Shown here: positions 3,013-23,601 of the stretch, piece after piece
Position numbering within the stretch: the stretch's first letter is position 1
Layout: every line of letters starts with the position of its first letter
DNA from: Escherichia phage vB_EcoM-Pr103Blw
Sequence record: MW481326.1
Reading direction: 5' to 3' (one strand)
DNA length: 64,000 bases
The notes under the pieces: generated by a model
The model's input: the letters and a program-made list of their open reading frames with translations, nothing else
What the model was told of the DNA's origin: nothing
Databases searched by the model: none
Position numbers and translations under genes: made by a program

Positions 3013-3546
3013 CTATAATTGTAGGTTGCATTCTTTACTTACCTCTTCAAGTTTAACCTCAGAGTCCTTAAGTCGTTTCTTATGAACTCTGAATCTCATT
3101 AGTGAGATGATGATACCAACTAAAGGGGCAGCATACAAGTACCAAACATCATATACCTTTGCAGTAATCTGTGTAATGGTCAAATCTTGAGCTATGGAAC
3201 TGATTGCTGATACTGCCAGTAATGTTGCTAAGAAAAATGCCAGTACCATTACTGTACTCAAACAACCTCTGGCATGGTGTTCATGCTTAATGCACTTATT
3301 CTTTTCGTCAACAACCCTGTTGTAGTCGTTTGTAAAGTCTCTGTAGAAAGCTTTCAAGTACTCTTGAGTGTAGCCTTCAAAGCAACCTGTACCATACCAA
3401 TAATCACCACCAAAATGTGCTATGATACCAGTATCTCCGTTTGGTTTTGTTACTCTTAGGGAGACATGATGACCAGTCTTCTGGTAATCTATCTTGTATC
3501 TTTCTTCGTAAATCATTTTCCAATCCCTCTCAATCGTTTGTTCCAC
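3013..3546 (-). CDS. putative membrane protein
   Basis: 177-aa ORF with long hydrophobic stretch (VMVLAFFLATLLAVSAISSIA ... LVGIIISL). Confidence 0.45.
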   Translation of the reverse strand: MEQTIERDWKMIYEERYKIDYQKTGHHVSLRVTKPNGDTGIIAHFGGDYWYGTGCFEGYTQEYLKAFYRDFTNDYNRVVDEKNKCIKHEHHARGCLSTVMVLAFFLATLLAVSAISSIAQDLTITQITAKVYDVWYLYAAPLVGIIISLMRFRVHKKRLKDSEVKLEEVSKECNLQL

Positions 3547-3731
3547 TCAAGGTCAACAAGTCTTTGTAGTACTTTGCCTCTAGGTGTTACACCTTTTAAA
3601 TCTGCATCGTAACAATGGTAAAAGTCACCTTCAGCGTGTTTACCATAGCATTTTCTGATATTCTGGCTTCTGCGATACTGTTCTAACAAGGACAGTTTGT
3701 AGTAATCTTCAACTGTAGTTAGTCTTTTCAT
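3513..3731 (-). CDS. hypothetical protein
   Basis: 72-aa ORF in operon context. Confidence 0.35.
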   Translation of the reverse strand: MKRLTTVEDYYKLSLLEQYRRSQNIRKCYGKHAEGDFYHCYDADLKGVTPRGKVLQRLVDLEWNKRLRGIGK

Positions 3732-4740: not shown

Positions 4741-5026
4741 CGTTAAACTCTCTGACGAAGAAATAGTTGACTTTGTTATTACCTACCATAAGGTCAAAGC
4801 AGGTATTTTCAAAAGGCTTGTTGTAGGCATCATATGAAGTATATGTATCAGCTACTTGTTTAGTGTTGAGCTTTTTACTTGATGGATTTAAGAGGCCACC
4901 ATACAGCTTCTTGATAGCCTCTTCTACAACAGACCAGATAATTTCGTCAGTAATTTCTTCGTACAGGTCAAGTTCACGCTCTAGTGAGAAGTCACAAATA
5001 GGGAAAACAACCTGTACTTTACTCAT
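4733..5026 (-). CDS. hypothetical protein
   Basis: 97-aa ORF. Confidence 0.4.
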   Translation of the reverse strand: MSKVQVVFPICDFSLERELDLYEEITDEIIWSVVEEAIKKLYGGLLNPSSKKLNTKQVADTYTSYDAYNKPFENTCFDLMVGNNKVNYFFVREFNDE

Positions 5027-5424
5027 TAACGAATAACCTGTGAGACTTGAATTGCTTCGGTTACTGACAAGTCACCTACTTTCTCTTCTTTGATAAAGGT
5101 GAAGGTAAGTTCAACAGGTTCTTGCTTTTCTTGCTCAACTGGAATGCCATTAAGCTCATCACGGATTGATTGAGTTGTCCAGTCTTCTCCACCATCTGGA
5201 TAATGGATGGCGTAAAGAGGGAACTCCATATCATACCAGCCAAATACAGGGCAGCCATCTGCATCATCTCGCATCCTACGTAGTGTGCTACCTGAGCCTG
5301 TAAAACGAAGGCAGATATTACCATTACACTCAAAGATTACTGCATCAGCAAGACCAGCGTCTTCACGGCCATCATGCCCAAACGTGTCAACTTTTACTTG
5401 AATATCTCTAACATCTTTATTCAT
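5026..5424 (-). CDS. hypothetical protein
   Basis: 132-aa ORF. Confidence 0.45.
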   Translation of the reverse strand: MNKDVRDIQVKVDTFGHDGREDAGLADAVIFECNGNICLRFTGSGSTLRRMRDDADGCPVFGWYDMEFPLYAIHYPDGGEDWTTQSIRDELNGIPVEQEKQEPVELTFTFIKEEKVGDLSVTEAIQVSQVIR

Positions 5425-5815
5425 AAAAACCTCTCTCTGCTTGTTCGATTTTTGCTCTTAAAGTTTCGCAATACTGTAAATGGTAGTTAGCTTCTTGTTC
5501 ATGTGTTGCTAACTGCCTTTCAAGAACAGTTTTATAGTAACCTGCAAGTTGCTCTTTTGTCAATGGGTGCTCTGAAATAATATCAAGTCCACTTTCACCA
5601 AGAGGATTGAATTGTCCATGCTCATTGACATTGTAAGTCTCAAACTTGAACATACCATTGTTCACAGACTCAATAGGTGACAGTTCAACAAGCTCTACAG
5701 TAAACCGTGTATACACCTTGTCGCCTCTTGAAACTACATTGTTTCCAATGATGCGTACAAGCGAACCATTACGAGTGTATTTAAAAGTCCCAAAGTCACT
5801 AGCCCAAAGTTTCAT
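5417..5815 (-). CDS. hypothetical protein
   Basis: 132-aa ORF. Confidence 0.45.
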   Translation of the reverse strand: MKLWASDFGTFKYTRNGSLVRIIGNNVVSRGDKVYTRFTVELVELSPIESVNNGMFKFETYNVNEHGQFNPLGESGLDIISEHPLTKEQLAGYYKTVLERQLATHEQEANYHLQYCETLRAKIEQAERGFYE

Positions 5816-5829
5816 AGCTTTCTCCTTAG

Positions 5830-5856
5830 AAAATAAAAAGGCTCCCGAAGGAGCCT
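5830..5856 (-). terminator. Rho-independent terminator-like hairpin (GGCTCC-TTCG-GGAGCC then T-run on minus strand)
   Basis: Plus strand reads aaataaaaaGGCTCCcgaaGGAGCC; on minus strand the hairpin is followed by TTTTTATTTT; lies just downstream of endolysin gene. Confidence 0.55.
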
Positions 5857-5865
5857 ATGAAGATA

Positions 5866-6330
5866 TTACTTTGGGTATACACTGTCAAGGTAAATATCAG
5901 CTTCCATTCTGCGTCTGTTTTTAAGACCGTTTGAAGTGACCTTCTCACCTTTGACCGTTACCTTGTTCCACCACTGCATAGCTTCTGCACAACCTACCTT
6001 ATTACCAGCGTTGTGGCGCTTGATAAATGTAGAGTCCTGCATAGCCGTGATACCGATGTTGTATGTTTCACTAACAAGGGCATCAAACTCATTTTGAGTG
6101 GTTGGGGTTTTGATTGCTTTGTTGACTGCACTGACAAACTTTTCAACATCAGCAAGAAGATACTGTTCAGCCTGTTCCTCAGTAATCTTCATACCCATTT
6201 TGACAGGTCTTCCATCAATACGGATTGTCCCGTAACCAATTGTTGGGATTCCGGCAGAATCTTTGTAGGCTTCTAACTCAAGACCTTCAAAGAATTTAAT
6301 AGCCTCTAGACCCTTCTTTGATAGTTGCAT
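5866..6330 (-). CDS. endolysin, GH24 phage lysozyme family
   Basis: N-terminal FEGLELEAYKDSAGIPTIGYG matches the E-x8-D-x5-T catalytic pattern of T4/lambda-type lysozymes; strong RBS GGAGGTG upstream. Confidence 0.7.
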   Translation of the reverse strand: MQLSKKGLEAIKFFEGLELEAYKDSAGIPTIGYGTIRIDGRPVKMGMKITEEQAEQYLLADVEKFVSAVNKAIKTPTTQNEFDALVSETYNIGITAMQDSTFIKRHNAGNKVGCAEAMQWWNKVTVKGEKVTSNGLKNRRRMEADIYLDSVYPK

Positions 6331-7466
6331 TATTCACCTCCTACTGGATTAACGGTAACTGTTGCGGCATTAGAGGTTACTGAACCTCCTGCACCAGTAA
6401 CTACACAAGTGTATGAACCAGCATCATCTGCACTCGTTGCACTTTCTTTGGTGTAAGTTGCAGCAGTTGCACTAGGAATGTTTACGTTATCTTTCTTCCA
6501 CTGATAGCCTGTTGCACCAGTAGCTACAACACTTAGTGTCAAGGTTTCACCTTCTGTGATTTCTTGATTTGTTGGTTGCTGAGTAATAACTGGTAGTGCG
6601 TTTACTGTGATAGTTGCAGGGTTAGAAGTAACCGAACCTCCAGCACCTGTTACAACGCAAGTGTATGAGCCAGCATCTGCTGGAAGTGCACCAGATTTGC
6701 TATATGTGGCCTTTGTAGCTGAAGGGATGTCGGAACCATCTTTCTTCCATTGGTAACCAGTTGCACCTGTTGCAGTAACTGCTAAGCTGATGTTTCCACC
6801 TTCATTAACGGTCTGGTTAGAAGGTTGCTTGGTAATCACTGGTAAGGCATTCACAGTAACTGTTGCTGCATCTGATGTGACACTTGTCCCACCCTCCCCA
6901 GATACAACACAAGTATATGAACCAGCGTCAGAAGGAACCACTGACTGTTTTGTGTAAGTTGCAGAGGTAGCACTAGTGATATCTTCACCACCCTTCTTCC
7001 ACTGATACCCTGTGGCATTAACTGCAACAACACTTAAGGTAAGTGCACCACCTTCATTTACTGTTTGATTGGTTGGTTGCTGAGTGATTGATGGTGGTTT
7101 GATAGCATCCTTTAACTTAGCATTTAACATTGAGAATGGTTTAACTCTTGCCAACCATTCACAATAAACAGTATCAACGTCTTTACCATTGATAATTGCA
7201 TATTGCAAATCCATGAAGAAATCAGAAGTTCTCATTTGAGTACCGATGCTGTAAAGCAACTCATCACTAAATGGGACTTTATAGGCTGGTTTGTAGTCAA
7301 ACTCTTCAACTTCTGCAATATCAGCTTCAGGCCAATACGAACTATAAGTAAGTGGCAAAATAGCCTCTTGATATGTTCTAAAATCATATCTCTTACCAGC
7401 CTTTACATTTGCAACGAAGCCCTTTACAAACTCTTTGAAGTCTGGGTAAGTCTTTGCTTTAATCAT
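6330..7466 (-). CDS. protein with three tandem Ig-like domains and an N-terminal domain paralogous to the neighbouring ORF
   Basis: Three about 85-aa repeats each containing ATGYQWKK ... DAGSYTCVV (Ig-fold Y-x-C signature); N-terminal 130 aa shares WPE(A/E)DI, YKP, LLY, FxMDxQY, RxNAKL with ORF 7463..7834. Confidence 0.6.
   Translation of the reverse strand: MIKAKTYPDFKEFVKGFVANVKAGKRYDFRTYQEAILPLTYSSYWPEADIAEVEEFDYKPAYKVPFSDELLYSIGTQMRTSDFFMDLQYAIINGKDVDTVYCEWLARVKPFSMLNAKLKDAIKPPSITQQPTNQTVNEGGALTLSVVAVNATGYQWKKGGEDITSATSATYTKQSVVPSDAGSYTCVVSGEGGTSVTSDAATVTVNALPVITKQPSNQTVNEGGNISLAVTATGATGYQWKKDGSDIPSATKATYSKSGALPADAGSYTCVVTGAGGSVTSNPATITVNALPVITQQPTNQEITEGETLTLSVVATGATGYQWKKDNVNIPSATAATYTKESATSADDAGSYTCVVTGAGGSVTSNAATVTVNPVGGE
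6333..7079 (-). repeat. three tandem about 250-bp coding repeats (Ig-like domain units)
   Basis: Near-identical peptide blocks repeated three times in the translated ORF. Confidence 0.6.
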
Positions 7467-7834
7467 TTCTTTTTAGCCTCTAAACGTGCGTTTAATCTAA
7501 AATAGCCTTTGTGTTGTGGAGAGACATCACCAACAACAATACCTTCAACCTTATAACCTTTACCAATTACATACTGAATATCCATAAGAAATGTACCAAG
7601 ACCAACAATATGGAACATTGGATATAATAATTTCTCTGAATCTGGGAGGTTAATTTCAGGTTTGTAGGTAGGTTGTTCACTCGTGGGTGTGATGTCTTCT
7701 TCAGGCCATCTACTAAGTCTCCATGTTAAAGGGGATGAGATAACATCATTAAGATTGTATATTTCACCATTCTCCACGGAATTGATATAGGATTGTAGGA
7801 AGCAATAAAAGTCTTTTGCACTCTTAGCCTTCAT
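7463..7834 (-). CDS. hypothetical protein, paralog of N-terminal domain of the Ig-repeat protein
   Basis: 123-aa ORF sharing several conserved blocks with residues 1-130 of ORF 6330..7466. Confidence 0.5.
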   Translation of the reverse strand: MKAKSAKDFYCFLQSYINSVENGEIYNLNDVISSPLTWRLSRWPEEDITPTSEQPTYKPEINLPDSEKLLYPMFHIVGLGTFLMDIQYVIGKGYKVEGIVVGDVSPQHKGYFRLNARLEAKKK

Positions 7835-7859
7835 TAAATATCCTTATAAAATAGATAAA

Positions 7860-7873
7860 GGGGCATTAGCCCC
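7860..7873 (-). terminator. short GC hairpin (GGGGC-ATTA-GCCCC) followed by T-rich run on minus strand
   Basis: seen between ORFs 7463..7834 and 7883..8473. Confidence 0.4.
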
Positions 7874-7882
7874 TATTCTCAC

Positions 7883-8473
7883 TTAAGCTTTAGTCTTAAG
7901 TAGGTTCTTAAGCTTTTTGAGATTCATACTCTCATCAAACTTAAAACCAAATCCATTGACATAATCAATGAACTCGGATTTTTTAGTAAGTGACAGTGCA
8001 TAACTCATATCAAAATTGTTTCCAGTTTCATAATCAGGACTTGAGTTAACATCAAATGAGATTTCAGTAGGTTCTTGTTTACTGTTTCTCATATTGTCAA
8101 TTAGCAAACAAGTGTAGTTTGCCGGATAGAAGTTTGCACTACCATCAACATATGTGTACTTGTTATTGTGAATAAGATTGGAAAATACCTTCAGGAAGGT
8201 TTCAGAGTCGTGACATACAAGTTTGAACTGACTTCCTTCACCGAGAGCTACTAATGAGTATGGGCTTTCACTATCAATGTCATAGTTTGGGTTTGATGTG
8301 GTTACAGTTACACGCATCAAGTTATTAGCAATAGTCTTTTGTTTAAAAGAATTTGGAACGTAGTGAAGACCTCTATCACACTGGTTAACCAACTCTTTCA
8401 ATAGGTCATTTGAATAAGGTGAGTTGATTGATACAGAGCCATCACTATTGTAATTAAAACTTACTGTTAACAT
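7883..8473 (-). CDS. hypothetical protein
   Basis: 196-aa ORF. Confidence 0.45.
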   Translation of the reverse strand: MLTVSFNYNSDGSVSINSPYSNDLLKELVNQCDRGLHYVPNSFKQKTIANNLMRVTVTTSNPNYDIDSESPYSLVALGEGSQFKLVCHDSETFLKVFSNLIHNNKYTYVDGSANFYPANYTCLLIDNMRNSKQEPTEISFDVNSSPDYETGNNFDMSYALSLTKKSEFIDYVNGFGFKFDESMNLKKLKNLLKTKA

Positions 8474-8700
8474 TTTTCAGTTCTCCTGCGATTTATAATT
8501 TTGCTGCAATAGAGAAACGAAGTAAACTCACTGGAAGAAACCATTAAGTGTTGTTCACTAGATTGAGCCATTGCCCTGAAATACATTCCAGTCAAAGCAT
8601 CATAGTGACTATTCTTTCCAATTGAGGTTATATAGCCATGACTCTTTGCAGTTTGATATAAATCTATAATATCTGCGATTTCTAATTGGGAACTACACAT
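8467..8700 (-). CDS. hypothetical protein
   Basis: 77-aa ORF. Confidence 0.4.
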   Translation of the reverse strand: MCSSQLEIADIIDLYQTAKSHGYITSIGKNSHYDALTGMYFRAMAQSSEQHLMVSSSEFTSFLYCSKIINRRRTEKC

Positions 8701-9092: not shown

Positions 9093-9464
9093 ATGAAAAA
9101 CAGAACAAACAAAGGCCAGTTTAAAAAAGGCCAGTCTGGAAACCCATCTGGAAGACCAAAAGGCTCTCGTAACAAAAGCTCACTTGTAAAAGCTCAACTG
9201 ACCATTGATAATTCTGCTGAGTTTGCTGCAAAGTTGTTTGAGGCGATTGTTACAAGGGACGCGGCTAAGCTTGCAGAGTTTGGGTTAAACACAGACGACG
9301 TAACCATCAAGAGCATGATTGAGGTCGGTAAAACTATCATGACCCACTCAGCAGGTGAGATGAAAGCAATTGCAGCAGACACTAAGAAGACTCCTGATAA
9401 TGGTGGTCAGTCTCAGACAGATAACAAACCAACGTTCTCTGCTGTTGCAACCCTTAAAAAATAA
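9093..9464 (+). CDS. hypothetical protein with basic N-terminus (GNPSGRPKGSRNK motif)
   Basis: 123-aa ORF immediately upstream of Ro60-like gene. Confidence 0.5.
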   Translation: MKNRTNKGQFKKGQSGNPSGRPKGSRNKSSLVKAQLTIDNSAEFAAKLFEAIVTRDAAKLAEFGLNTDDVTIKSMIEVGKTIMTHSAGEMKAIAADTKKTPDNGGQSQTDNKPTFSAVATLKK

Positions 9465-15162: not shown

Positions 15163-15235
15163 AGCGGTATAGCATAACTGGCAATGCAGCAGTCTCTGAA
15201 GCTGTCTTATTAAGGTTCAAATCCTTATGCCGCTG
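15163..15235 (+). tRNA. tRNA-Gln (anticodon CTG)
   Basis: D-stem GCAT/ATGC, anticodon stem GCAGT/GCTGT loop CTCTGAA, T-arm TAAGG-TTCAAAT-CCTTA, CCA encoded. Confidence 0.6.
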
Positions 15236-15269
15236 CCACTTCTAAGGATTCTTACGAGAGTCCTTAAAT

Positions 15270-15342
15270 GTGGCCTTATCATAAACGGTAATGACCCATG
15301 CTGTGAACATGGTCTATACGGGTTCAAATCCCGTAGGTCACC
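15270..15342 (+). tRNA. tRNA-His (anticodon GTG)
   Basis: anticodon stem CCATG/CATGG loop CTGTGAA, T-arm ACGGG-TTCAAAT-CCCGT, discriminator C, CCA encoded. Confidence 0.65.
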
Positions 15343-15350
15343 CCAATTTA

Positions 15351-15425
15351 TAGTCCAAGTAGCTTATATGGTTAAAGCGCGTGTCTGAAAAACATGAGAA
15401 GAGGGTTCAAATCCCACTGGACTAC
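15351..15425 (+). tRNA. tRNA-Phe (anticodon GAA)
   Basis: perfect acceptor TAGTCCA/TGGACTA, anticodon stem CGTGT/ACATG loop CTGAAAA, T-loop TTCAAAT; exact ends uncertain. Confidence 0.55.
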
Positions 15426-15443
15426 CAATTTCAAAGGTGCTTA

Positions 15444-16178
15444 ATGAAAGAGATGACAGAACAAGGTAAGGAGATTTTCAATCTCTTAAAAACTGGTAAA
15501 GGGTTTTCTAACCCCCTTATTACTGGTGCAGCAGTTCTCGGTGGAACCGTAGCTGCCTCTACATCACTTGTAAGCTCTATTAGCTCTGTATCAGACCCTA
15601 CAGTAAAGGATAAGCTTGTTGCTGCTGGACTTACAACAGTTCTGCTTAACAGCTTTACCACGAGTCTGACAAGCACTACATCAACTACCAAAACACTGAC
15701 AGATTATGGTCAAAAGTCCATTGATGAGTTCTCATCACGTATGCAGGTAGCAAAAGGTTATTCTAATGTTATGGGTGCAGCAGGTGAACAAGTTGGCTGT
15801 ACACCATTTAGTGGTATTATGGGTGTTGCTACAGAGTATGGTCAAAAAGCTATTGATACGATTAACAGTGCACTAGATAGTGTTAATGGTGTGTTAAGTG
15901 ACTTACAAGATGCTATTGACAAAGGTCTTGATACTATTTCTGATTTAGCTGAGCAAGCTGTTAGTAAGATTAATGAAGGTATTTCAAAAATTACAGCTTA
16001 TGCAGATGAAGTTGTACAGATGATTGAAGAAGAAGCTGCTCTTATTGCAGAGTACCTTAAAACGAATATCAATGGGTTCTTAGCAGGTATCTTACCAGAC
16101 TGGTTTGATGATGCTTGTAAAACTGGTGTAATTGACACTATTGCAACACCAGAAATGAAGAACGCATTACAGAAATAA
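15444..16178 (+). CDS. hypothetical Ser/Thr-rich protein
   Basis: ORF-track ORF starts inside tRNA-Phe; internal ATG at 15444 preceded by AAAGGTG chosen as start. Confidence 0.5.
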   Translation: MKEMTEQGKEIFNLLKTGKGFSNPLITGAAVLGGTVAASTSLVSSISSVSDPTVKDKLVAAGLTTVLLNSFTTSLTSTTSTTKTLTDYGQKSIDEFSSRMQVAKGYSNVMGAAGEQVGCTPFSGIMGVATEYGQKAIDTINSALDSVNGVLSDLQDAIDKGLDTISDLAEQAVSKINEGISKITAYADEVVQMIEEEAALIAEYLKTNINGFLAGILPDWFDDACKTGVIDTIATPEMKNALQK

Positions 16179-16180
16179 AT

Positions 16181-16270
16181 GGAAGATTAACCCTAAAAGG
16201 TAAGGGAGCAGTTTGCTAAACTGCCAGTAGCTGAGAAATCGGTGTACCAGTTCAAGTCTGGTATCTTCCT
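16181..16270 (+). tRNA. tRNA-Ser (anticodon GCT), long variable arm
   Basis: perfect acceptor GGAAGAT/ATCTTCC, anticodon stem GCAGT/ACTGC loop TTGCTAA, about 20-nt variable arm, T-arm ACCAG-TTCAAGT-CTGGT, CCA encoded. Confidence 0.7.
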
Positions 16271-16277
16271 CCAATTT

Positions 16278-16350
16278 GAATCCGTGACAGAAATGGCTAT
16301 GTGCCTGTCTGCAAAACAGGTTTATAAGGGTTCGAGTCCCTTCGGATTCT
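16278..16350 (+). tRNA. tRNA-Cys (anticodon GCA)
   Basis: perfect acceptor GAATCCG/CGGATTC, anticodon stem CCTGT/ACAGG loop CTGCAAA, T-arm AAGGG-TTCGAGT-CCCTT, CCA encoded. Confidence 0.7.
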
Positions 16351-16391
16351 CCAAGTTATTTTACTCTCTCTCAATTAAAATAATAATAATG

Positions 16392-22494: not shown

Positions 22495-23601
22495 ATGTTG
22501 ACTAATTCTGAAAAAAGCAGATTTTTCCTTGCTGACCTGACTGGTGAAGTACAGTCTATCCCAAATACTTATGGGTATATTTCCAACTTAGGTCTGTTCC
22601 GTTCAGCACCAATCACCCAAACTACTTTCCTTATGGACTTGACTGATTGGGATGTTAGCTTGCTTGATGCGGTAGACCGTGATAGCCGTAAAGCAGAGAC
22701 TAGCGCACCTGAGCGTGTTCGTCAAATCAGCTTCCCAATGATGTACTTCAAAGAAGTTGAAAGTATTACTCCTGACGAGATTCAGGGTGTACGTCAGCCA
22801 GGCACTGCAAACGAACTGACTACTGAAGCTGTAGTACGTGCTAAGAAGCTGATGAAGATTCGTACCAAGTTCGATATTACTCGTGAGTTCCTGTTCATGC
22901 AAGCTCTGAAGGGTAAAGTTGTTGATGCTCGTGGTACTCTGTACGCTGACCTGTACAAGCAGTTCGACGTTGAGAAGAAGACTATTTACTTTGACCTTGA
23001 CAACCCTAATGCTGACATCGACGCTTCTATTGAAGAACTGCGTATGCACATGGAAGACGAAGCTAAGACTGGCACTGTAATCAACGGTGAAGAAATTCAC
23101 GTAGTTGTTGACCGTGTTTTCTTCAGCAAACTGACTAAGCATCCTAAGATTCGTGATGCTTATCTTGCACAGCAGACTCCACTGGCTTGGCAGCAGATTA
23201 CTGGTTCTCTGAGAACTGGTGGTACTGATGGCGTTCAGGCTCATATGAACACTTTCTACTACGGTGGTGTTAAGTTTGTCCAGTACAACGGTAAGTTCAA
23301 AGACAAGCGTGGTAAGGTCCACACTCTGGTGAGCATTGACAGTGTAGCAGATACTGTTGGTGTTGGTCACGCCTTCCCTAACGTATCTATGTTGGGTGAA
23401 GCTAACAACATCTTCGAAGTTGCATATGGTCCATGTCCTAAGATGGGTTATGCAAATACACTTGGTCAGGAACTGTACGTATTCGAATACGAAAAAGACC
23501 GTGATGAAGGTATTGACTTTGAAGCTCACTCTTACATGCTGCCATACTGTACTCGTCCTCAGTTGCTGGTAGATGTTCGCGCTGATGCTAAAAGCGACTA
23601 A
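22495..23601 (+). CDS. major capsid protein (putative)
   Basis: 368-aa ORF after protease/scaffold gene; Thr/Val/Gly-rich codon usage typical of highly expressed genes; position-based. Confidence 0.55.
   Translation: MLTNSEKSRFFLADLTGEVQSIPNTYGYISNLGLFRSAPITQTTFLMDLTDWDVSLLDAVDRDSRKAETSAPERVRQISFPMMYFKEVESITPDEIQGVRQPGTANELTTEAVVRAKKLMKIRTKFDITREFLFMQALKGKVVDARGTLYADLYKQFDVEKKTIYFDLDNPNADIDASIEELRMHMEDEAKTGTVINGEEIHVVVDRVFFSKLTKHPKIRDAYLAQQTPLAWQQITGSLRTGGTDGVQAHMNTFYYGGVKFVQYNGKFKDKRGKVHTLVSIDSVADTVGVGHAFPNVSMLGEANNIFEVAYGPCPKMGYANTLGQELYVFEYEKDRDEGIDFEAHSYMLPYCTRPQLLVDVRADAKSD

Follow-up and report, generated by a model that had tools for sequence, protein, structure and literature searches.

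A free-standing paralog of the capsid-binding domain beside the Hex-Dec-type decoration gene of a Felixounavirus-like phage

Introduction

Hex-Dec of phage Bas63 and gp20 of phage Sf14 have been modelled on the capsid in two cryo-EM structures, in which the monomers plug the centres of only the 60 pentamer-adjacent hexamers of a T=9 capsid and display Ig domains (PMC12609058, PMC11821841). Both studies report no density at the three-fold hexamers. The Sf14 authors attribute this vacancy to the shifted positions of residue D221 of the major capsid protein (MCP), which no longer fit gp20 residues R79 and R107, the two arginines that form salt bridges with D221 (PMC11821841). Virion mass spectrometry (MS) detected both Sf14 gp20 (PMC11821841) and Gp36 of phage Felix O1 (PMC3185647). 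More than 10 kb separates the Bas63 gene from the structural module, and the number of Ig domains varies within the genus (PMC12609058).

T4 Hoc resembles these proteins in being a hexamer-centre monomer that extends a string of Ig-like domains off the head, is non-essential and has a proposed role as an adhesin or in aggregation. The capsid-binding domain of Hoc is smaller, lies at the C-terminus and, in the judgement of the Bas63 authors, has a distinct topology (PMC12609058), whereas that of the protein described below is N-terminal. The window analysed here, 64,000 nucleotides from Escherichia phage vB_EcoM-Pr103Blw (MW481326.1), is a Felixounavirus-like myophage genome that carries a gene of this kind and, immediately upstream, a second gene for its N-terminal domain alone. 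We are highly confident that the first encodes the orthologue of Bas63 Hex-Dec, Sf14 gp20 and Felix O1 Gp36, and that the second arose by an old tandem duplication of the capsid-binding domain alone and encodes a functional but dispensable accessory.

Table 1. Features of the cassette and of the predicted docking partner
Feature	Position	Strand	Evidence
Terminator-like hairpin and T run, just past the endolysin stop	5839..5856	(-)	
Endolysin, T4-lysozyme type	5866..6330	(-)	Pfam Phage_lysozyme E 1e-40; PHROG 7
Hex-Dec/gp20-type protein, 378 aa (predicted capsid hexamer-centre decoration protein)	6330..7466	(-)	phmmer against PDB; PHROG 3995 E 5e-207
Ig-like unit 3, aa 292-375, orthologue of Bas63 Ig4 (89% identity)	6342..6593	(-)	Pfam; AF2
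Ig-like unit 2, aa 208-291, orthologue of Bas63 Ig2 (88% identity)	6594..6845	(-)	Pfam; AF2
Ig-like unit 1, aa 124-207, orthologue of Bas63 Ig1 (93% identity)	6846..7097	(-)	Pfam Ig_3/I-set; AF2
Capsid-binding domain (CapBD), aa 1-122, with anchoring arginines R79 and R107	7101..7466	(-)	1:1 alignment with modelled 9ncf_S and 9c2d_S
Gene junction, paralog/Hex-Dec	7463..7480	(-)	Sequence
Free-standing CapBD paralog, 123 aa	7463..7834	(-)	PHROG 4463 (unknown function)
GC-rich hairpin AGGGGC-TAAT-GCCCCT, then T-rich tract, directly upstream of the paralog	7859..7874	(-)	
Major capsid protein (MCP), predicted docking partner	22495..23601	(+)	phmmer 9ncf_A E 3e-248

The Ig-repeat protein and its relatives

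When the Ig-repeat protein was searched against the PDB with phmmer, it matched Bas63 Hex-Dec (9ncf_S, E 3e-257) and Sf14 gp20 (9c2d_S, E 4e-170), with the alignments starting at residue 1. An initial annotation, made from the sequence, had described an N-terminal domain of about 130 aa followed by three tandem Ig-like units; this architecture stands, with the size of the N-terminal domain (the capsid-binding domain, CapBD) corrected to ~122 aa. Pfam recovered three stretches each of Ig_3 (E 3e-32), Ig_2 and I-set across residues 124-375, and AlphaFold2 (AF2) modelled the same region as three beta-sandwich units with pLDDT of at least 95, so that on structure prediction the repeats come out Ig-like. 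The CapBD is poorly modelled in the AF2 prediction of the full protein (pLDDT 36-70). The units are 67-69% identical to one another in protein and 60-68% in DNA, with a longest exact DNA match of at most 14 nt, and DNA-level detection found no tandem repeats among them because their codon usage has drifted apart.

The N-terminal domain is 93-96% (Felixounavirus) or ~85% (Mooglevirus) identical to the corresponding domains of Bas63 Hex-Dec (9ncf chain S) and Sf14 gp20 (9c2d chain S). The three proteins share the anchoring arginines R79 (QMR79T) and R107 (LAR107VK), which are invariant across homologues, the MCP partner D221, the I-set-type Ig repeats, and a locus that adjoins the endolysin gene outside the structural module. 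The MCP encoded in the window has 4 differences in 368 aa from that of Bas63 (9ncf_A; ~99% identity) and keeps the motif KIRD221AYL. The protein differs from Bas63 Hex-Dec in Ig count only, as its three units correspond to Ig1, Ig2 and Ig4 of the four in Bas63 and Ig3 has no counterpart. A comparison of copy number among relatives, which the initial annotation had proposed, gave from 1 to 4 units.

By homology to the solved virions, every one of the 60 pentamer-adjacent hexamers of a T=9 head would have the CapBD of a single monomer docked at its centre, where R79 and R107 would anchor the protein to MCP D221 and the three flexible Ig-like domains would project outward. Binding at the hexamer centres of the present capsid is a prediction from the Bas63 and Sf14 orthologues, in which it has been shown. 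For the Ig domains we infer a probable role in Hoc-like adhesion or in sensing aggregation. Matches to PHROG “Hoc-like” families are confined to residues 121-372, that is, to the Ig part, and the protein does not have a Hoc-type C-terminal capsid-binding domain. The match to T5 pb10 (PDB 5lxk_A, E 1.5e-11; 8zvi_a) is similarly restricted to residues 299-375 of the Ig part, and phmmer against the PDB detected no similarity between the CapBD and the N-terminal capsid-binding domain of the pb10 type.

A profile search of 1.84 billion representatives returned only 13 clusters, of which those examined were Ounavirinae-like loci, and it yielded no distant homologue of known function. Kolesnikvirus phiEa104 gp038 and the metagenomic proteins P0101-P0105 share the CapBD family and the locus order of upstream ORF, CapBD protein and lysozyme. 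The display module has been swapped among these relatives, being a Big_2-type Ig in P0101, P0102 and P0104, one I-set-like Ig in P0103 and a Lys-rich tail only in P0105. The Ig-less P0105 (153 aa) is the only CapBD gene product at its locus, from which it follows that a CapBD can stand alone. No free-standing paralog was seen at the Kolesnikvirus and metagenomic CapBD loci examined. In a neighbor-joining (NJ) tree, the order of the duplication and the Kolesnikvirus split has 24% support.

Organization of the cassette

The genes for the paralog, Hex-Dec and endolysin form a three-gene cassette bracketed by two terminator-like hairpins, and the hairpin upstream of the paralog is also kept in Felix O1, mio and L022. 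A 196-aa ORF, the paralog, Hex-Dec and endolysin follow one another in this order in Felixounavirus, Mooglevirus, Suspvirus and a divergent metagenomic lineage. As had been noted from the sequence, the Ig gene is adjacent to the endolysin gene (the Hex-Dec stop and the endolysin ORF overlap by 1 nt) and is far from the structural module: the terminase-to-tail-fibre genes occupy 16783-39664 on the (+) strand, past a cluster of 26 tRNA genes, with the terminase gene ~9.3 kb and the MCP gene ~15 kb away from the Ig gene. The paradox which the initial annotation saw in virion-type Ig domains encoded away from the structural genes dissolves, since the orthologues decorate virions by both cryo-EM and virion MS. 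Its placement of the locus in an “early-type” block is unsupported, because the Ig gene is translationally linked to the gene for endolysin, a late function, within the hairpin-bracketed cassette. The three genes probably constitute a small late cassette outside the structural module.

At the upstream junction, a GAGG (7477-7480) lies 10 nt ahead of the Hex-Dec ATG (7464-7466), which overlaps the TGA stop of the paralog (7463-7465), a layout in which translation of the paralog would come immediately before that of Hex-Dec. The sequence TTAGAGG and the stop/start overlap are kept in all relatives, even where the paralog has decayed. A scan for sigma-70-like promoters stayed at background (21 found vs 19.6 expected). 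The motif TATTTTATAAGGA upstream of the paralog was considered as a shared late promoter and set aside as uninformative, with 8 matches vs 3.8 expected and none upstream of structural genes. A literature search for temporal transcriptome data on Felix O1-like phages gave nothing relevant.

The free-standing paralog

Over its entire length, the product of the adjacent ORF can be aligned with residues 2-119 of the Ig protein at 34% identity (BLASTP E 2e-15; phmmer 2e-10), and PHROG cross-hits between the two proteins are reciprocal. An AF2 model of the paralog (pLDDT 74, pTM 0.74) was compared with the PDB by Foldseek and matched only 9ncf_S and 9c2d_S (E ~3e-5, TM 0.64-0.67, 118-119 columns), while a fold search of BFVD gave no matches outside its own family. 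The proposal that this ORF is a paralog of the N-terminal domain alone is thereby upheld in both alignment and fold. The protein stops at the CapBD boundary, lacks Ig-like display domains and has no Pfam match. For the capsid-binding domain of Hoc, no free-standing paralog is known to us.

The paralog has neither of the anchoring arginines, with an invariant glycine (G78) in place of R79 and Q (or H) at position 106 in place of R107. The most conserved stretch is the counterpart of CapBD residues 69-95, which includes the R79 site, and conservation extends over the whole domain, not merely the 3' end of the gene. Equivalents in other phages are Felix O1 ORF37, Bas63 bas63_0125 and SUSP1 agp126, and the Sf14 orthologue occupies 10503-10868 of NC_042075. 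The ORF is intact in ~232 of 252 related genome records, spanning three genera, and also in a lineage only 47% identical; the other ~20 records are without it. Its omega is ~0.11-0.14 vs 0.04 for the CapBD, over dS of up to 1.3, and these values exclude neutral decay for the majority of lineages. Identity to the divergent lineage is 47% for the paralog vs 59% for the CapBD. Decay has occurred in one clade, as phages mio and L022 have lost the start codon and ~220 bp of the gene.

The paralog scored “Not Fit” in the SUSP1 CRISPRi-ART knock-down screen. The endolysin did so too, and the screen therefore has false negatives. Felix O1 ORF37 is missing from the stringent virion MS list for that phage (PMC3185647), and the paralog is missing from Table 1 of the Sf14 study (PMC11821841) and is not listed in the text of the Sf14 supplements; the wV8 paper is uninformative on the virion proteome. 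The word “paralog” occurs in neither structural paper (PMC12609058, PMC11821841), though the Bas63 and Sf14 genomes both carry the gene.

Possible roles of the paralog

Our best guess is that the paralog is a capsid-hexamer-binding accessory that acts transiently or sub-stoichiometrically. We tentatively favor, at rather less than even confidence, a protein whose specificity has altered but which still recognizes the centres of capsid hexamers. It would either be a bare cap over the 20 three-fold hexamers or occupy hexamers transiently or in competition while the head is assembled, in which case it would not be retained in quantity in mature virions. That the paralog is specialized for a quasi-equivalent site or state other than that of Hex-Dec, namely the 20 three-fold hexamers or the unexpanded procapsid, strikes us as unlikely. 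If the two paralogs did divide the hexamers between them, one bare and one with Ig fibres, gene duplication would be a means of discriminating quasi-equivalent capsomers and of setting the density of Ig fibres on the head.

The absence of the paralog from virion data sets and its tight translational coupling upstream of Hex-Dec are also what would be expected of a non-virion assembly factor or competitor, sitting transiently on procapsid hexamer centres or binding Hex-Dec or free MCP, which would time or limit the loading of Hex-Dec and be released before or at maturation. Weak, reversible binding would fit a protein that has kept the fold but lost the strong anchors, and selection on the paralog is purifying yet more relaxed than on the CapBD. 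However, CapBD proteins are assembled in Kolesnikvirus and in other relatives that have no paralog of this kind, and phage mio, which is without it, keeps an intact Hex-Dec gene. We give this explanation about one part in four of our confidence, possible but on the improbable side.

The pattern of occupancy raises a second explanation, in which the paralog is a head-decoration protein of mature virions that caps the 20 three-fold hexamers closed to Hex-Dec and has so far been missed. The hexamers left empty by Hex-Dec are exactly the three-fold ones, the residues that the shifted D221 positions there no longer fit (R79 and R107) are the two changed in the paralog, and the paralog is co-translated with Hex-Dec. 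Icosahedral averaging would smear a monomer on the three-fold axis to one-third occupancy, and 20 copies of a 14-kDa protein per virion could escape gel-based MS. Against it, neither paper found density on the other hexamers (PMC12609058, PMC11821841), the Felix O1 virion MS list is without the paralog (PMC3185647), and the protein is dispensable both in nature and in the CRISPRi-ART screen, which together make a stable virion component doubtful.

The loss of the anchoring residues, the faster evolution of the paralog than the CapBD (seen in the identities to the divergent lineage and in an omega ~3x higher) and the “Not Fit” score in SUSP1 would be accommodated by a non-capsid function, for example a host-directed or regulatory one, or by a slowly decaying duplicate kept mainly for the Hex-Dec ribosome-binding site in its 3' end; the clade that lost the paralog still keeps a 3' remnant with GAGG. 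The omega and dS values, the ORF kept intact across ~232 records and the 47%-identical lineage, and conservation that goes beyond the 3' end to the entire domain argue otherwise, and we give this explanation a low probability. A protein with two CapBDs would result if programmed -1 frameshifting at GCT-AAA-AAG, just ahead of the overlap, fused the paralog to Hex-Dec. Such a fusion was suggested by the -1 frame of the Felixounavirus Hex-Dec ATG and the AAAAAG run 4 nt before the stop, but is rejected as extremely improbable because these features are confined to Felixounavirus (Mooglevirus is without the run and the Suspvirus Hex-Dec is in the +1 frame) and the solved chains begin at Hex-Dec residue 1.

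Significance

The Ig-repeat gene is an ordinary one, because the head-decoration protein it encodes, Hex-Dec of the Felix O1-like phages, is already solved; as a further orthologue of a structurally characterized protein, it adds little new. The “tail protein” annotation (PHROG 3995, RefSeq), which is widespread, is wrong for the Hex-Dec family. The paralog is a conserved, selected and co-translated copy of exactly the capsid-docking module, yet the known anchors are missing from it and it has not turned up in virions. Hexamer binding by the paralog would account for the restriction of Hex-Dec to 60 of the 80 hexamers, and phage display on therapeutic phages of the Felix O1 type would gain a capsid-docking tag of minimal size (14 kDa). 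Should the paralog not bind hexamers, it would exemplify the recruitment of a structural domain to a different function.

The capsid decoration protein

A PDB sequence search with the Ig-repeat protein (Hex-Dec) returned two chains aligned from residue 1: 9ncf_S (E 3e-257), the Bas63 'Immunoglobulin-like domain protein', and 9c2d_S (E 4e-170), the Sf14 'tail protein'. The three tandem Ig-like units proposed in the initial annotation were recovered both by Pfam, whose Ig_3 (E 3e-32), Ig_2 and I-set models each match three times within residues 124-375, and by the structure prediction suggested there, AlphaFold2 giving three beta-sandwiches with pLDDT 95 or more.

Cryo-EM studies of the orthologues Hex-Dec (Bas63) and gp20 (Sf14) show a monomer bound at the hexamer centre of pentamer-adjacent hexamers only, hence one per asymmetric unit and 60 per T=9 head, with no density on the 20 three-fold-axis hexamers of either phage (PMC12609058; PMC11821841). 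The capsid-binding domain (CapBD) comprises the N-terminal 118-122 residues and folds into two pseudo-symmetric lobes, the flexible Ig domains could not be resolved in the maps, and a Hoc-like function was proposed; the gene lies >10 kb outside the structural module and its Ig domain number varies within the genus (PMC12609058; PMC11821841). Earlier publications therefore cover the Ig-repeat protein as well as its unusual place on the map and the variation in its repeat number. In Sf14, R79 and R107 of the gp20 domain anchor it to capsid-protein residue D221 (PMC11821841). All three residues are found in the window phage, whose major capsid protein (MCP) differs from that of Bas63 at 4 of 368 positions. 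Given the orthology to solved structures, CapBD would plug the hexamer centre via salt bridges from R79 and R107 to D221, with the Ig fibre pointing outward from the head; an adhesin or aggregation role has been proposed in print. The Felix O1 orthologue, ORF36, which neighbours lysin ORF35, was detected in the virion proteome in 2010 as Gp36 and named a tail protein (PMC3185647). The 'tail protein' label of this family in PHROGs and RefSeq is therefore a legacy mis-annotation.

Comparison of Ig-unit copy number across 31 related loci plus the window, as the initial annotation had advised, revealed a range of 1 to 4: one unit in 5 loci, two in 14, three in 10 (window included) and four in 3. 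Across all counted loci the first units are orthologous to one another, as are the last units, and the window's three correspond to Bas63 Ig1, Ig2 and Ig4. One-unit forms resemble Ig1/Ig4 hybrids, which indicates, from sequence comparison, that internal units are gained and lost in register. Such changes among close relatives occur despite the lack of long shared DNA repeats in the window, where the units are pairwise 67-69% identical in protein and 60-68% in DNA. Tandem Repeats Finder detected no repeat across them because of this low DNA identity and the absence of any exact match longer than 14 nt.

Gene order and neighbours

Features of the window (Escherichia phage vB_EcoM-Pr103Blw, MW481326.1)
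Feature	Coordinates	Strand	Remarks
132-aa ORF	5026-5424	-	PHROG 4348
Hairpin and T-run	5839-5856		One flank of paralog/Hex-Dec/endolysin trio
Endolysin			Next gene downstream of Hex-Dec; Pfam Phage_lysozyme, E 1e-40
Hex-Dec, 378 aa	6330-7466	-	ORF; Ig-repeat protein
Ig units	6342-7097	-	Three
CapBD paralog, 123 aa	7463-7834	-	ORF
GC-rich hairpin	7859-7874		Other flank of trio
196-aa ORF	7883-8473	-	PHROG 4034
DUF5681 protein	9093-9464	+
DUF2828/DUF7788 'RNA-binding protein'	9546-10961	+	Ro/TROVE-like, vWA
tRNA gene cluster	11128-16353	+	26 genes
Terminase, portal, protease, MCP, sheath, tape-measure and tail-fibre genes	16783-39664	+
308-aa ORF	22603-23529	-	Antisense inside MCP gene

Nucleotide matches to region 5800-8500 came from 248 phage records (~80-89% identity), almost all Felixounavirus and relatives, from Escherichia, Salmonella, Shigella and Citrobacter hosts. 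The endolysin gene does adjoin the Ig gene, its start overlapping the Hex-Dec stop by one base. The paralog stop and the Hex-Dec start are interlocked as ATGA, and GAGG stands 10 nt before this ATG. Decoration proteins and endolysins are late functions, from which we infer that the three genes are late; a search for transcript data yielded nothing, and the 'early-type' block to which they had been assigned found no support.

The 196-aa ORF has no Pfam match; its counterparts (183-205 aa) lie directly upstream of the CapBD gene(s) in every Ounavirinae-like lineage examined, distant metagenomic ones included, one distant copy having a 'faint' Phage_Inh_N match and the SUSP1 orthologue scoring 'Not Fit' by CRISPRi-ART. 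The tRNA block, with 26 genes versus the 22 reported for Felix O1, stands between the leftward block carrying Hex-Dec and paralog and the terminase-to-tail-fibre module. Directly upstream of it, the DUF5681 and DUF2828/DUF7788 genes adjoin; the SUSP1 orthologue of the former, agp130, scored 'Fit' (2.43, p 0.008), and the gene is therefore important. Orthologues of the 132-aa ORF in BPS17W1 and mio are labelled 'D-alanyl-D-alanine carboxypeptidase' in RefSeq, probably an over-annotation; the ORF has no Pfam match and its PHROG no function label. The 308-aa ORF is almost certainly spurious.

A free-standing paralog of the capsid-binding domain

The paralogy noted initially holds, and no discussion of it was found in the searchable literature. 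The paralog aligns end to end with Hex-Dec residues 2-119 (34% identity, E 2e-15), and their PHROG profiles match reciprocally. Its AF2 model (pLDDT 74, pTM 0.74) found only two PDB chains, both CapBD (TM 0.64-0.67), and only Ounavirinae proteins in BFVD. The best-conserved stretch is the counterpart of CapBD residues 69-95; within it an invariant glycine replaces R79, and Q or H replaces R107.

By tblastn, ~232 of 252 family-carrying records, spanning Felixounavirus, Mooglevirus and Suspvirus, have both paralog and CapBD, and ~20 have CapBD alone. Phage mio and one related locus (L022) retain a remnant that has lost its start codon and ~220 bp but keeps the 3' end, including the GAGG/ATGA junction. 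In a divergent 87-kb metagenomic phage the gene order is a 195-aa ORF, a 122-aa paralog (just 47% identical), a 298-aa Hex-Dec and lysozyme. In Kolesnikvirus (phiEa104) and in more distant relatives the locus holds one CapBD gene, either joined to a Big_2-type Ig domain or carrying a lysine-rich tail alone (metagenomic P0105, 153 aa); no free-standing copy was found in those examined. The family forms only 13 clusters among 1.84 billion representative proteins. Paralogs (64%) and Felix-type CapBDs (100%) each group in a neighbour-joining tree, which does not resolve the timing of duplication relative to Kolesnikvirus. A Felix O1-like paralog and Hex-Dec region (89% protein identity) also occurs in the 147-kb 'Staphylococcus phage SA1' (GU169904.1, H53), which suggests that this assembly is chimeric or contaminated.

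Nei-Gojobori estimates of omega for the paralog are 0.11 in comparisons within Felixounavirus and 0.14 in those between genera, versus 0.04 for CapBD (Ig1, 0.10-0.13; endolysin, 0.05-0.09); the paralog is therefore under selection, with weaker constraint than its parent domain. In SUSP1, agp126 (paralog) and agp125 (Hex-Dec) each scored 'Not Fit' (PMC11879866, supplementary file 16). The endolysin orthologue (NC_028808 79585-80049; L042, the same SUSP1 locus, 3086-3550) also scored 'Not Fit' (0.82, p 0.14; PMC11879866), either a false negative or redundant lysis capacity, so such negatives carry little weight. Taken with its natural loss in one clade, the SUSP1 score of the paralog shows that phages can do without it in the laboratory, as they can without decoration proteins such as Hoc.

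Possible roles of the paralog

Our best guess is that the paralog may still recognise capsid hexamer centres with changed specificity: the whole domain and central helix region are kept, it is co-translated with Hex-Dec, and a distant relative's only CapBD copy is Ig-less. The absence of both anchoring residues speaks against this, as do all the virion data available. Stringent virion mass spectrometry of Felix O1 did not identify ORF37, the paralog (PMC3185647); the word 'paralog' is absent from the main text of both cryo-EM papers (PMC12609058; PMC11821841), and the Bas63 and Sf14 genomes both encode the gene. With such binding, the paralog would either cap the three-fold hexamers without any Ig display or occupy hexamers transiently, or in competition, while heads assemble. 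The second option, an assembly factor or competitor that is not a virion component, is a tentative suggestion. Somewhat more doubtful is the cap, which would sit on mature virions, and an unrelated or fading function is held as unlikely as the cap. Frameshift fusion of the paralog with Hex-Dec was rejected.

The window contributes one further three-Ig orthologue. Hundreds of public genomes carry the paralog, BLAST finds it readily, and it has no phenotype to date; it is less a surprise than a modest loose end that can be tested.
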